A stretch of 64,000 nt of DNA from an uncultured cyanobacterium (GTDB taxonomy: Bacteria > Cyanobacteriota > Cyanobacteriia > Cyanobacteriales > Nostocaceae): the NCBI GenBank assembly GCA_963706595.1, contig OY970166.1:4512001-4576000 (forward strand). Direction: 5' to 3'. A program made the translations under genes and the position numbers. The notes under the pieces were generated by a model that was not told where the DNA came from, did no database searches, and saw nothing but the letters and a program-made list of their open reading frames with translations. Positions 55,935 to 60,327 of the stretch are shown piece by piece. Numbering within the stretch: the stretch's first letter is position 1; each line of letters begins with the position of its first letter.

Positions 55935-56068
55935 TCCTAAATCCTCACATTCAAATAGTTTTGTGATATTGCCTTGTTGCACTGACCTAGAATAGTCCTG
56001 ACTAGCCTGATATTTCATCACTGTTACAGTTTTGGTAACTGTAGCGTTTTTAACTCGCGTCCAACTCC

Positions 56069-56112
56069 CCCCTCTCCTGATAAAGGAGAGGGGCTGGGGG
56101 TGAGGTTCTATA
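56069..56112 (+). repeat. REP-like hairpin repeat, left copy flanking the ubiquitin-like operon
   Basis: CCCCTCTCCTGATAAAGGAGAGGGGCTGGGGGTGAGGTTCTATA. Confidence 0.8.
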
Positions 56113-56253: not shown

Positions 56254-57411
56254 ATGGACTCTTTTGTGATCACAGACCATCAAGAGAGCCGTTATGGTCG
56301 GCATCATCTCATTGATTGGTGGAATCAGAATCGTCTCAAAACTGCCAGAGTCCTAGTTGCTGGAGCAGGTGCATTAGGTAACGAAGTACTCAAAAATCTA
56401 GCCTTGGTGGGTGTGGGTAAGATCACAGTCATTGACTTTGATACAGTTTCCATTACTAACCTGACTCGTTCGGTTTTGTTTCGAGAGTCTGATGTGGGCT
56501 TACCAAAAGTAGAAGTTGCTCGTCAAAAGGCGTTAGAAATTAATCCAGAAATCACCATACAGGCAATTCATGGAGATTTAGAATTCGACTTGGGTATTGG
56601 TGATGTCCGAGAGCATGATTTAATTATTGGTTGTCTGGATAGCATCAATGCACGTTGGGCAATTAATCAACTTGCCTATCGTGCGGGAATACCCTGGATA
56701 AATGGGGGAATTGGTGTATCGGAGGGAGAAGTCAGTTTTTTTGACCCCAAAACAGCAGCAGCTTGTTATGAGTGCAGCATTTCTAATCAAATGTGGGAAC
56801 GTCGTAACCAACGCTACTCTTGTCAAGGGATGAAACGCCATATCCCCGAAGCCGCAATGCCCACAACAGCTACAATTGCCTCCATAGTCGGAGCAATGCA
56901 AGTACAACAAGCTCTGCTTTATTTACATAGCAAAACAGGGTTATTAAATGCAGGTGAAAAAGTCTTTTTGGGTTTAAATCCTTGGATGGCTTTTAAAGTG
57001 CAAATCCAACGGCAAGAGGCTTGTATTGCCCATGATTTAACCATTATTCCCACAGAAAATATTAACTATGAGCCAAAGCTGACAGTGAAATCAGTTCTGC
57101 AAAGATTAGAACAGTCTGGATTTACAGAACCTATTCTCTGGTTAAGAAATGAAGTAATTGGGATGATGAGATGCCTCAATCTAGATTGTGGTTATCAAGA
57201 GCAAATTAATATTCCTCTGCGTCAATACCCTGAATCAAAACTAGCTTGTCCTAAATGTAATCATGAACGTGATTTTGAGGTAATTAGGAATATTTCACTA
57301 GCCTCACCTGGGGCAAATATTACCTTGGGAGAATTATGTCTACCGAACAACGAAATTTTACACTGCGCCACCAACAAAGGTGCAATAGCAATTCAACTTT
57401 GCCAAATATAG
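56254..57411 (+). CDS. E1-like ThiF-family ubiquitin-activating enzyme
   Basis: RYGRH, VAGAGALGNEVLKNLALVGVG, DFDTVSITNLTRSVLF, CYEC, candidate catalytic RYSCQ, PTTATIASIVG, C-terminal CxxxxC/CxxC. Confidence 0.9.
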   Translation: MDSFVITDHQESRYGRHHLIDWWNQNRLKTARVLVAGAGALGNEVLKNLALVGVGKITVIDFDTVSITNLTRSVLFRESDVGLPKVEVARQKALEINPEITIQAIHGDLEFDLGIGDVREHDLIIGCLDSINARWAINQLAYRAGIPWINGGIGVSEGEVSFFDPKTAAACYECSISNQMWERRNQRYSCQGMKRHIPEAAMPTTATIASIVGAMQVQQALLYLHSKTGLLNAGEKVFLGLNPWMAFKVQIQRQEACIAHDLTIIPTENINYEPKLTVKSVLQRLEQSGFTEPILWLRNEVIGMMRCLNLDCGYQEQINIPLRQYPESKLACPKCNHERDFEVIRNISLASPGANITLGELCLPNNEILHCATNKGAIAIQLCQI

Positions 57412-57427
57412 GAATATAAGAGCAACA

Positions 57428-57682
57428 ATGTCTGATTCAATTTCCCTTGTGATTCGTTCAGCAGATCAAACTCGTAAAGCTGCTGTTTCATTACCTCCAG
57501 CGCTAACTATAGAACAGTTACTACAAACTACCCAGGAAAAATGGAATCTCCCATCAAATACTAACTATGCCATGCGTTTAGAACGAACAGGACAACAATT
57601 AGATCCTGCAACAACTCTCGAAAGTCTGGGAGTTGAGGAAAATGATGTCCTGGAACTTTATCCAATTTTAGAGGCTGGTTAA
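57428..57682 (+). CDS. Ubiquitin-like beta-grasp protein (YukD/EsaB-like) ending in Gly
   Basis: 84 aa; LTIEQLL, GQQLDPATTLESLGVEENDVLEL, C-terminal LEAG. Confidence 0.85.
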   Translation: MSDSISLVIRSADQTRKAAVSLPPALTIEQLLQTTQEKWNLPSNTNYAMRLERTGQQLDPATTLESLGVEENDVLELYPILEAG

Positions 57683-57684
57683 TT

Positions 57685-58194
57685 ATGGGTATCAGAGAAA
57701 GACGATTAGAAAATGACTTTAAAGAATTAACCACATTAGTTAATACTTCCGGTGCAAAACTGGCGCTTATTTCCAAACAAGGACAACCACCATATCACTA
57801 TATAATTGAATATCGCTGTCGAGGCATAGCAAGAGTACAAGGAATAGAGCCTACTTTTCGCACTACTCACCGTGTAGAGATTAATATAGGTAGTAATTAT
57901 CCTAAAGAAAAACCTGACGCTAAGTTTCTCACAGCCATATTTCATCCTAATGTCTATACTAACCAAAGAGTGTGTCTCGGTAATTATTGGACAATGGCTG
58001 AAACCCTTTCGGAATTAGTGCTTCGCATTGGCAAAATCATCCAATACTCAGATGATGTCCTAAATTTAGAAAGTCCAGCTAATCCTGACGCTAAAAATTG
58101 GGCTAAAAATAATCTGCGGCGGTTTCCTGTGGATACACAAACTTTCAAAGTTAATCAAAAATTATTGACAACAATAGTTTGGAATGATTTATAA
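57685..58194 (+). CDS. E2/UBC-like ubiquitin-conjugating enzyme
   Basis: RRLENDF, YPKEKP..KFLTAIFHPNV...VCL...W (HPN motif plus Cys), NLESPANPDA. Confidence 0.9.
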   Translation: MGIRERRLENDFKELTTLVNTSGAKLALISKQGQPPYHYIIEYRCRGIARVQGIEPTFRTTHRVEINIGSNYPKEKPDAKFLTAIFHPNVYTNQRVCLGNYWTMAETLSELVLRIGKIIQYSDDVLNLESPANPDAKNWAKNNLRRFPVDTQTFKVNQKLLTTIVWNDL

Positions 58195-58861
58195 AATCAT
58201 TAAAAAACTTTTGCAAATATTTAGTTCATATAATTTATGGCAAGAATTTTATCACTCAAAATCTGTAACCATGAGCAACTTGAATCAAACTATGGATGAT
58301 GAAAATCAAATCATCTCACCTCAAAATGCACAAATTGAATGGGTAGAATGTGATGATGTTTATAAACCAATAGAAAAACCTATCGAGGAATTTTTAGCAG
58401 AACGAGGAATTGATATTAATTTCTTCTACCAAGTTTATATTTTAGAAACAGCACATACAACCCTATTAGAACATTTAAGAGAAGATACAAAGGTAGAACA
58501 TGGGGGTATTCTCTTTGGTAATGCTTACAGAGATTATGAATATGGAATTTATGTAGAAATTACAGCCGCAGTTCCAGCACCAGCCACAATGGGTACAGGT
58601 GTATATTTAGAATTTACAGCAGAATCATGGCTGAAAATTATGGATTATGCTAAAGCTGCTCATCCAGATGCAAATATTGTGGGATGGTATCATTCACATC
58701 CCAACCTTGGTGTATTTATGTCCGGAACAGATATGAGAACACAGCGAGCTTTTTTCTATCATCCTTGGTGTTCATCAATTGTTTTTGATCCTGTGAGAAA
58801 CCAAATTGCTTACTTTTTGGGTGAGGATGCAAATATGGTAAATATCATAAAATTTAGTTGA
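58184..58861 (+). CDS. JAB/MPN+ metalloprotease (deubiquitinase-like); start may be 58271
   Basis: EHGGILFG and GWYHSHPNLGVFMSGTD JAMM motif, VFDP. Confidence 0.9.
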   Translation: MIYKIIKKLLQIFSSYNLWQEFYHSKSVTMSNLNQTMDDENQIISPQNAQIEWVECDDVYKPIEKPIEEFLAERGIDINFFYQVYILETAHTTLLEHLREDTKVEHGGILFGNAYRDYEYGIYVEITAAVPAPATMGTGVYLEFTAESWLKIMDYAKAAHPDANIVGWYHSHPNLGVFMSGTDMRTQRAFFYHPWCSSIVFDPVRNQIAYFLGEDANMVNIIKFS

Positions 58862-58938
58862 TTTCGAGAAAATGAATAAACTTGCAACATCAGCTATAGC
58901 TGTAAATATTGATTATTTTTATCCAAAAAGCTGAAGAT

Positions 58939-59565
58939 ATGACCAATAATATCAGATATGTAAATTTGATTTGGCTAGGATTTGTTGGTGCATTTATTGG
59001 TGTGTTTATTGGTGTCTTGAAGGTGTTTAATTGGGATTTTATTTTTTTAGTGATATTTATAGTCGTAATTATTTGCTTAATCGCATTTTTGCATAAAAAG
59101 CTAACAGCTAATAATTCCGCACAAAACTCACAAAGACAGTCAACACCACAACGATTTTTATCTCCTAGTAATCAGACTAGAAATAACTTTTCATTAACTC
59201 AGAGGAGTTTACAAAATATTCAATGGACTGAAATAGGTACATATTCATCAAATAATTCTCAAACAACTGAAGAAAATAATATTACATTTGATGATTTTAT
59301 AGACTTGCATGATGCTACAGCCAATACAAAAGAACTGATAAATAATTTAATAGGACAAAAAGATCGTGTAACTGGTGATATATTTAATCCAGGTGAAAAA
59401 GTATATTTCTGTGTTCCCTGTCAACTAGGATATCACCAAGATAGTTGGCGATTTTTAGATAGAAAGTGTGAACAATGCAAATCTCCTCACGCGAGTAAGT
59501 ATACTCTTACCGTTTCGAGAGTGAGTGAACAGCCATTGGATACCTCTAACCCTTCTTTAACATAA
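58939..59565 (+). CDS. Two-TM membrane protein with C-terminal degenerate RING-like Zn finger (candidate E3)
   Basis: Two hydrophobic helices, polar linker, DRVTGDIF...YFCVPCQLGYHQDSW...KCEQC. Confidence 0.65.
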   Translation: MTNNIRYVNLIWLGFVGAFIGVFIGVLKVFNWDFIFLVIFIVVIICLIAFLHKKLTANNSAQNSQRQSTPQRFLSPSNQTRNNFSLTQRSLQNIQWTEIGTYSSNNSQTTEENNITFDDFIDLHDATANTKELINNLIGQKDRVTGDIFNPGEKVYFCVPCQLGYHQDSWRFLDRKCEQCKSPHASKYTLTVSRVSEQPLDTSNPSLT

Positions 59566-59648
59566 TTAGAATTAGAAAATTCAATATTTTAACAACATCT
59601 TCTAGAAATTAATTTAAATAAATGTTTCCAGTTGCGGGAAGTACAAAC

Positions 59649-60269
59649 ATGAAAATTTTATATGGAATTGAACCATATATATGTATTAACAATCCTGATA
59701 TCTTAATGAATTTTTCTTTAGATATTGTATTACCTCAATATTTCCTCACCCAAATTACCCATTTGAGTAATAGTAATTTTGGTAATGCGACTGTATCAGC
59801 AAATAAAATTATCAACTCATTACATCGATGGGAAAATTCAAATTTATTATTTAAAACCAACGCAAAAGGAACCGTTTATTTTATAGCTGAAGCAATCAAC
59901 TATCTTAAAGTTGACAGCCAATATCAGAACATAGATAATACGAATCTACTAGACAGATATTTATTAAGTCTTTTATATTTATCCAATATTCTAGAAGCAA
60001 AAATAGTCTTTTTAGCGTCATCGCCTGAAATGATTGGCAAATGTCGCATTTTAAATTTAGACCCTGTTACTTTAGCCGAATTTACGCTGAATGGTGAGTC
60101 TTGGTTACAACCAGAAATGTTAATTAATATGGAAACAAGTCACCCAGATATAGTTAGTGAACCCGATATTTTAGATGCTTCAGAAAGAGAGACAACTGTA
60201 CAAATTCAATGGTTAGATATTAGAGTTTCACAAGAGACAAGTAATATTCAATGGCTAGATATGAGATAG
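59649..60269 (+). CDS. Hypothetical protein, probable degenerate PIN-like fold with duplicated IQWLD tail
   Basis: YGIEPYICINNPDIL..F..IVLPQYFLTQI, DRYLL, IVFLASS.EM..KCRIL spacing parallels PIN domains; alternative start at 59622. Confidence 0.55.
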   Translation: MKILYGIEPYICINNPDILMNFSLDIVLPQYFLTQITHLSNSNFGNATVSANKIINSLHRWENSNLLFKTNAKGTVYFIAEAINYLKVDSQYQNIDNTNLLDRYLLSLLYLSNILEAKIVFLASSPEMIGKCRILNLDPVTLAEFTLNGESWLQPEMLINMETSHPDIVSEPDILDASERETTVQIQWLDIRVSQETSNIQWLDMR

Positions 60270-60283
60270 AATTAACTCTTTCT

Positions 60284-60327
60284 CCCCTCTCCTTATTAAG
60301 GAGAGGGGCTGGGGGTGAGGTTCTATA
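60284..60327 (+). repeat. REP-like hairpin repeat, right copy flanking the ubiquitin-like operon
   Basis: CCCCTCTCCTTATTAAGGAGAGGGGCTGGGGGTGAGGTTCTATA, a direct repeat of 56069-56112. Confidence 0.8.

Follow-up and report, generated by a model that had tools for sequence, protein, structure and literature searches.

Burroughs, Iyer and Aravind reportedly predicted prokaryotic RING tri-ligase systems built around a ubiquitin-like protein (Ubl) in 2011, and their study is said to be the source of the Pfam family PF14446 (Prok-RING_1). Such systems, known from prediction only and sporadically distributed, cluster the genes of a JAB peptidase, an E1, an E2, a Ubl and a prokaryotic RING-type protein. 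RING-bearing tri-ligase clusters are predicted in PMC7159879, and bacterial operons with a RING E3 are called rare and uncharacterised in PMC10557695 (PMC numbers refer here and below to excerpts of these papers). Here, we describe a six-gene cassette, E1-Ubl-E2-JAB-gene 5-gene 6, at 56254..60269 of the window, the whole stretch of 64,000 nucleotides analysed from contig OY970166.1 of an uncultured Nostocaceae cyanobacterium. The cassette fits the predicted RING tri-ligase operons and is neither Bil, Bub nor CBASS. The first-pass annotation of this DNA had recognised no characterised system with its layout; we likewise found no characterised match, but the kind had already been predicted in the two papers cited. 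From the sequences, the balance tilts slightly in favour of a mobile Ubl-conjugation cassette whose thioester cascade is assembled by docking similar to that of SUMO-interacting motifs (SIMs). Its features, by position in the window, are as follows.

56066..56112, no strand: left copy of a palindromic dispersed repeat, 88% identical to the right copy; bounds the cassette.
56254..57411, + strand: E1; ThiF adenylation domain with catalytic Cys190 (56821-56823) and, at the C terminus, a ubiquitin-fold domain (UFD).
57428..57682, + strand: Ubl; beta-grasp protein of 84 amino acids (aa), C terminus LEAG (Pfam and profile matches).
57685..58194, + strand: E2; classical UBC protein with HPN and Cys97 (57973-57975) (Pfam, alignment).
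58174..58191, + strand: C-terminal tail motif of the E2, IVWNDL (motif scan).
58184..58861, + strand: JAB/JAMM metallopeptidase (Pfam), start codon uncertain.
58334..58351, + strand: motif in the N-terminal extension of the JAB, IEWVEC (motif scan).
58939..59565, + strand: gene 5, membrane RING-like protein (hydropathy, weak PF14446 match); finger at 59362-59478.
59218..59235, + strand: linker motif of gene 5, IQWTEI (motif scan).
59281-59298, + strand: Phe-type copy of the motif in gene 5, ITFDDF (motif scan).
59649..60269, + strand: gene 6, PIN-fold protein with a disordered C-terminal tail (Foldseek, Atlas features).
60204..60221, + strand: first tail motif of gene 6, IQWLDI.
60246..60263, + strand: second tail motif of gene 6, IQWLDM.
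60281..60327, no strand: right copy of the palindromic repeat, pairing with the left copy.

Six open reading frames (ORFs), co-oriented on the + strand and closely spaced, had been annotated initially, and coordinates and strand agree with this description (intergenic gaps between the longest ORFs 16, 2, -11, 47 and 56 nt). The diagnostic residues named at that stage were all found as well, namely RYSC190 in the E1, the LEAG ending of the Ubl, HPN...C97 in the E2 and GWYHSHP...S..D in the JAB. The start of the JAB gene is uncertain among 58184, 58271 and 58292; gene 5 more likely starts at ATG 58939 than at TTG 58909, and homologues of gene 6 begin at ATG 59649. Pfam matches were obtained for the E1 (ThiF, E 4.8e-55), the Ubl (Rad60-SLD, 1.5e-6; ubiquitin, 1e-3), the E2 (UQ_con, 3.2e-12) and the JAB (JAB, 9.4e-11), with none above cut-off for genes 5 and 6. 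PADLOC and NCBIfam searches with the cassette proteins returned partial matches, of which none exceeded a curated cut-off.

A canonical E1-E2 thioester cascade is very probable. The E1, E2, Ubl and JAB genes are clustered, and the E1 cysteine, the E2-binding UFD and the HPN/Cys-type E2 that define the canonical cascade are all present. The E1 consists of 385 aa with one ThiF domain followed by the UFD, which holds an inserted C4 zinc ribbon; a crossover-loop CxxC (171/174) occurs together with C257/H260, and all 13 aligned E1s share Cys190, the cysteines of the crossover loop and a further cluster of four cysteines without variation. Residues 14-385 of the predicted E1 model (pLDDT 87) aligned to SAE2 (9dqb_B; Z 28.5, rmsd 4.0, 311 residues), and for UBA3 and UBA1 the model aligned with their C-terminal ends as well. 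MoeB and ThiF scored slightly above SAE2 (Z 30.6 and 29.6), but their alignment ends at E1 residue 261. Because SAE2, UBA3 and UBA1 align through the C terminus whereas MoeB and ThiF stop short of it, the E1, as modelled, has a UFD like that of SAE2 and UBA3. An Atlas search with the E1 C terminus gave E2_bind and UAE_UbL as leads only, all scoring below 0.9. The E2 matched Rad6/UBE2A/B best (E 1e-8), and its H87, P88 and C97 are invariant in 39/39 sequences.

The Ubl profile found its best solved-structure match in the Rad60 SUMO-like domain (SLD) 3goe (E 5.6e-4), which places the tag, judged by sequence, nearest to Rad60/SUMO-like domains. R10, R16 and G84 are invariant among 15/15 homologues, the two arginines being situated on the beta1-beta2 face. 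The JAMM motif is kept in 53 of 55 homologous JAB ORFs. Of the homologous Ubl ORFs, 47 in number, 22 have Gly as their last residue, 21 continue past the conserved Gly and 4 are broken or otherwise different. Since nearly as many are extended as end in Gly, the JAB family presumably must also mature the tag; the early view of the JAB as a deconjugase rather than a maturase therefore suits this copy but not the family.

The most unusual feature, in our judgement, had been passed over by the first-pass annotation. A short motif, [IV]-x-W-x-[DE]-hydrophobic, recurs five times in the operon, at the C terminus of the E2, at the N terminus of the JAB, in the gene 5 linker and twice in the gene 6 tail. 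In its strict form it is present in 1.7% of 4700 genome ORFs, with 0.045 expected in the four operon proteins, an enrichment whose odds are overstated since the pattern was fitted after being seen. This operon is the sole run of four consecutive strict-motif ORFs in the genome. A looser pattern, found in 6.6% of genome ORFs, gave one further run, which is unrelated; we read its matches as falling inside folded domains.

Conservation of the motif extends to related loci. A relaxed form was present in 95 of 100 full-length E2 homologues (2 of 102 were dropped as truncated). In a survey of 60 loci, from which L035, L038, L047, L048, L123 and L124 were left out and in which some near-duplicates remain, the Trp motif lay beyond the folded domains in 38/64 E2, 48/52 JAB, 34/56 RING and 17/18 PIN ORFs; counted in its broad form, it was present in 45/56 RING ORFs. 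It was absent from all 47 Ubl ORFs of these loci, even unmasked. Unrelated accessory proteins that differ by lineage bear it too, among them a kinase, a VirD4-like ATPase (3-4 copies) and small zinc proteins. The motif occurs in acidic (IxWxD), mixed (LNWRD), basic (VKWHK) and Phe-based (KKFxI) variants, and the beta1-beta2 region of the Ubl is basic at acidic-motif loci, where R10 and R16 are invariant, and acidic at basic-motif loci. Motif charge opposed the charge of this region (Spearman -0.72, 22 loci, amounting to about four lineages and including one motif, at L094, that the script mis-picked); for the charge of the whole Ubl the value was -0.32 and not significant.

SIMs bind a basic-edged beta2/alpha1 groove and are found on extensions of E1, protease and E3 proteins, and the groove to which they bind remains free while catalysis proceeds (PMC12687455, PMC12751080). 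A groove free during catalysis agrees with the placement of the operon motif, which likewise has a short hydrophobic core and an acidic flank and lies in disordered regions; being centred on Trp, it is a loose fit. To strand addition in the beta2/alpha1 groove of the Ubl, the SIM mode of binding, the charge covariation across few lineages speaks only indirectly. We consider the chances evenly balanced that the Ubl is the receptor of the tail motif.

The limits just attached to the motif statistics weigh against a docking-assembled cascade, and so do several further points. Ubl columns 50, 59 and 76 correlate with motif charge as strongly as the beta1-beta2 region does, shared ancestry could explain the charge correlation, and the Trp-centred motifs match the SIM consensus only loosely. 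The E1 ORFs (n=64) gave 30 unmasked pattern matches, mainly at one conserved folded site, and their count of zero in the masked survey arises because the mask hides such matches. MoeB and ThiF, too, have a Cys near position 190. The gene 5 finger never attains the PF14446 cut-off, and a PDB profile search with it yielded mostly partial matches to C2H2 and PHD fingers. Finally, no defence-island pattern emerges in the neighbourhood of related loci. A complex prediction for the Ubl and the gene 6 tail (residues 172-206) scored 0.02 against a mark of 0.32, with the fold of the partner uncertain, and counts neither way.

A cascade that is real but whose motif docks elsewhere, on the E1 UFD (a beta-grasp fold as well), the back of the E2 or a chaperone or protease of the host, strikes us as unlikely, yet it has several observations on its side. 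The E1 does possess a UFD, the window E1 carries no Trp motif, E1s of basic LNWR-type loci lack an N-terminal motif, and many motif copies sit at extreme C termini, where degrons are placed too. However, in the JAB and the RING protein the copies lie at the N terminus or internally, some KKFxI-type loci have the motif of their class at the start of the E1 (L044, L045), and it is the beta1-beta2 face of the Ubl that motif charge tracks.

Gene 5 is composed of two N-terminal helices predicted from hydropathy, a low-complexity linker and a Prok-RING_1-like finger. Its two hydrophobic segments are followed by HKK, which suggests that the C terminus is cytoplasmic. Prok-RING_1 was the commonest finger match; at E<=0.1 it was found for 19 of the 35 members, with 3.8e-5 as the best value and none reaching the cut-off. 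In the Prok-RING_1 register, Asp and Ser replace the first zinc site, invariantly in 35/35, with nearly invariant His and Trp, and the second site is mostly retained. The initial description as a two-transmembrane RING-like protein stands as regards the predicted helices and the type of finger, but only four of eight zinc ligands are present. The SP-RING retains the distal zinc alone (PMC10873205), and the gene 5 finger would retain the same site, provided that the Prok-RING_1 register is right; the resemblance is one of analogy. That this RING acts as an E3 appears fairly probable. Of the complete E1-E2-E3 cascade at the membrane proposed earlier, the E1-E2 thioester relay is well supported by conserved residues and the UFD, whereas a RING E3 is plausible, though with a one-zinc finger and a missing appended domain.

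In relatives, the finger is followed by TPR, OB-like, HIRAN, GUN4 or PPC domains. The finger is fused to HIRAN in L034:8757-9245 and to an OB-like domain in L036, L037 and L039-L043, and these fusions hint at tagging that might be guided by nucleic acid. The OB-fold matches of the appended domain were weak (OB_YrrC 5/9, best E 0.006), and no meaningful match to it was found in the PDB. Gene 5 lacks the C-terminal domain that 19 of 22 other subtype proteins have; it ends 28 aa past the finger, compared with at least 95 aa in these 19, and no remnant of the missing domain was matched anywhere in the genome. Many related cassettes (L014, L046, L080-L082, L091, L094-L096, L098) are also preceded by a divergent gene, sometimes fused to an NB-ARC-like ATPase; this gene, possibly a regulator, is missing in the window. 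Together with the broken state of several related loci (L033, L048, L085, L086, L105), these absences would suit a decaying passenger that arrived intact, lost its RING targeting domain and regulator and is now useless. We regard this as improbable, as all six frames are open with their catalytic residues intact, and a second cyanobacterial layout (L014, L080-L083, L116) normally uses RING proteins without an appended domain.

The PIN-like nature of gene 6 was supported by fold only. Its model comprises a folded core (residues 1-163) and a disordered tail (residues 164-206, pLDDT <50). Foldseek listed Nmd4, SMG6 and other PIN domains in the top rows (best E 1e-3, none below; TM 0.44/0.54), and PIN_4 was named on 23 of 30 Atlas feature matches. 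By the PIN consensus, gene 6 appears to retain D102 only, with Q35 and S125 occupying two expected acidic positions. Because most catalytic acids thus seem to be missing, the protein is probably inactive as a nuclease, and its likeliest part is that of a non-catalytic adaptor, a reader or a substrate. The Trp residues of its two tail motifs, W188 and W202, are invariant in 26/26 homologues, and the linker preceding them is variable.

Mobility is indicated by the surroundings of the cassette. The palindromic repeat, with 59 genome matches of at least 35 nt, encloses it with the copies at 56066 and 60281, and in the congener G001 the site is empty, both flanks being joined via a single repeat copy. 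In four other congeners the site is occupied by something else, either a DUF4394/PEP-CTERM gene or a histidine kinase; this variable cargo site lies between a vWA/YfbK gene and an Ap4A phosphorylase gene (G001, G003, G004, G007, G009; L049-L053). Among the matches listed for 10 congeners, none was to the cassette DNA. The simplest reading is a recent gain at a variable site; less simply, the cassette may have been lost in G001 through recombination between the two repeat copies. The E2 was matched in 18 of 401 genomes in a sample of the phylum and in 29 of 401 in a sample of the order, this genome included, counts that contain 2 and 3 weak, stop-ridden matches, respectively, which we discounted. 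Close named homologues are from Nodularia and Microcystis, and one related cassette resides on a Crinalium plasmid. GC content declines through the cassette from 41% (E1) to 31% (gene 6), with 41% for the genome; the HIP1 octamer does not occur in the cassette, nor in 96 of 1386 genome segments of equal size, and a promoter scan gave 14 sites versus 17.3 expected. Among the entries listed, there was no RNA holder for the cassette.

The scattered distribution, common decay and changing appended domains are in keeping with a conflict or stress role, to which we assign an even chance. The defence or stress role guessed at first remains a guess: PADLOC (113/141 neighbouring ORFs of related loci, compared without a control set) revealed no recurring defence system, its matches being mostly generic kinase, ABC-ATPase, WYL, Uma2-type and TnpB-like. 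Relatives in viral contigs amounted to 13 pattern matches, 0 confirmed, and none were confirmed among 50,697 phage records. Just upstream of the window, at G000:C1:4502653-4510563, lies a gene cluster whose motifs presumably make it akin to conflict systems of the MoxR/vWA type that include formylglycine-enzyme-like domains. That the cassette serves sulfur transfer or cofactor synthesis in the manner of ThiF/MoeB-ThiS/MoaD is barely credible: the top structural scores of the adenylation domain and its best NCBIfam matches (ThiF/MoeB models, all below cut-off) speak for it, but the cassette lacks a rhodanese domain and possesses an E2, a RING-like finger and a UFD, other ThiF-type genes lie elsewhere in the genome, and no cofactor-synthesis genes were seen in related cassettes.

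In the mechanism that we favour, the E1, probably a homodimer, would adenylate Gly84 of the Ubl and then form a thioester at Cys190, residues that are observed in the sequences. As its architecture implies, the E1 UFD would recruit the E2, and the Ubl would be transferred to Cys97. The membrane-anchored one-zinc RING might then activate E2~Ubl at the membrane, where in relatives the variable appended domain (TPR, OB-like, HIRAN, GUN4) probably selects the target or trigger. The JAB would strip the tag and, in relatives, mature extended Ubls. The motif present on E2, JAB, RING and PIN proteins would bind the beta2/alpha1 edge of the Ubl in a SIM-like manner, and conjugated Ubl might thereby gather the machinery and accessory proteins. 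Taken further, and here we are tentative, a little short of even odds, the cassette may be a bacterial SUMO-like system: an E1-E2-one-zinc-RING cascade in which enzymes and accessories plug into the tag by a linear motif, new proteins (PIN, kinase and VirD4-like ATPase) are recruited once they acquire it, and between lineages the charges of motif and tag surface shift together, which insulates the systems from one another.

Related loci vary considerably in layout. A sister layout (L091-L094, L098, L046 and L124, the Crinalium plasmid) combines E1-Ubl-E2-JAB with a VirD4/TraD-like ATPase that bears as many as four tail motifs; L092 contains a pair of Ubl genes, of which one does not end in Gly, and L091 contains two E2 genes. 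In L013:5935-6936, L083:8452-9405 and L088:8778-10274, a Ser/Thr kinase with the same motif at its end comes after the PIN-fold gene or forms a fusion with it. In L044, L045 and L095 an E2-like domain is fused N-terminally to the JAB, and a small zinc-ribbon gene with a KKF-type motif lies 5' of the E1; L044 continues with an SPFH-FHA gene. Natural Ubl-E2 fusions ending in a similar Trp motif were seen in P0188, P0233 and P0238, the last a Planctomycetota record; in P0174 a Ubl without terminal Gly is followed by the motif and then a zinc ribbon. L047 (G178) represents a more extended system, in which a multidomain Ubl-E2 fusion is accompanied by E1, JAB and MoxR-like genes, laid out as in PMC7159879, and its E2 and JAB bear a basic Phe/Leu-x-Ile stretch.

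The cassette is intact-looking, and the putative docking motif is the feature that merits testing. Its four small, soluble proteins, together with one short finger, open an entire bacterial E1-E2-E3 cascade to direct test. Non-covalent reading by short linear motifs is regarded as a hallmark of SUMO (PMC12751080); if the motif binds the Ubl, such reading of a Ubl occurs in bacteria, which would bear on the origin of eukaryotic Ubl signalling and provide an orthogonal tag-and-dock kit. Given the homologues in Nodularia and Microcystis, a defence role, if any, would be relevant to bloom ecology. Our literature search, with most subscription journals outside it, returned no description of this layout or motif, and Burroughs 2011/2012 may list the cassette.

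Compared with the predicted RING tri-ligase systems, the cassette keeps Ubl and E2 separate, contains none of the genes EAD1, FtsH, MoxR/vWA and caspase, carries a finger in which one zinc site is lost and has in addition a PIN-fold gene and a shared tail motif. Bil (BilABCD), which is anti-phage, shares with it separate Ubl, E1, E2 and JAB proteins and Cys thioester chemistry (PMC10557695), but BilD is described there without a UFD; we rejected Bil in view of the E1 with a single adenylation (ThiF) domain and UFD, the HPN...C rather than CEHH-type E2 and the RING-like gene. Bub (6E/DUF6527) likewise comprises a bacterial Ubl, E1, E2 and peptidase, but works through Tyr/Ser oxyesters with fused E1s and no catalytic Cys (PMC11601596), whereas here C190 and C97 are both invariant and the genes separate, on which grounds Bub was rejected. 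Type II CBASS was rejected as well: E1 and E2 are separate, the PADLOC E1-E2 models match the adenylation part only, and no cyclase match passed E 0.01.

The nearest reconstituted E1-E2-E3 cascade is that of the Caldiarchaeum subterraneum operon, which shares a compact set of Ub, E1, E2 and small RING genes and a classical E2; its RING, of the RING-H2 kind, has two zincs, the tag that it uses is ubiquitin-like proper, and a membrane anchor, a PIN gene and a tail motif are not described in the excerpt (PMC5654768). Differences from the SUMO pathway are a cassette tag with AG in place of GG at its end, a motif centred on Trp and a finger derived from Prok-RING_1. The comparison is one of how the two work rather than of membership, and the likeness lies in a SAE2-like E1, a one-zinc RING, a SUMO-domain-like tag and hydrophobic-acidic motifs on flexible extensions (PMC12751080, PMC12687455, PMC10873205).

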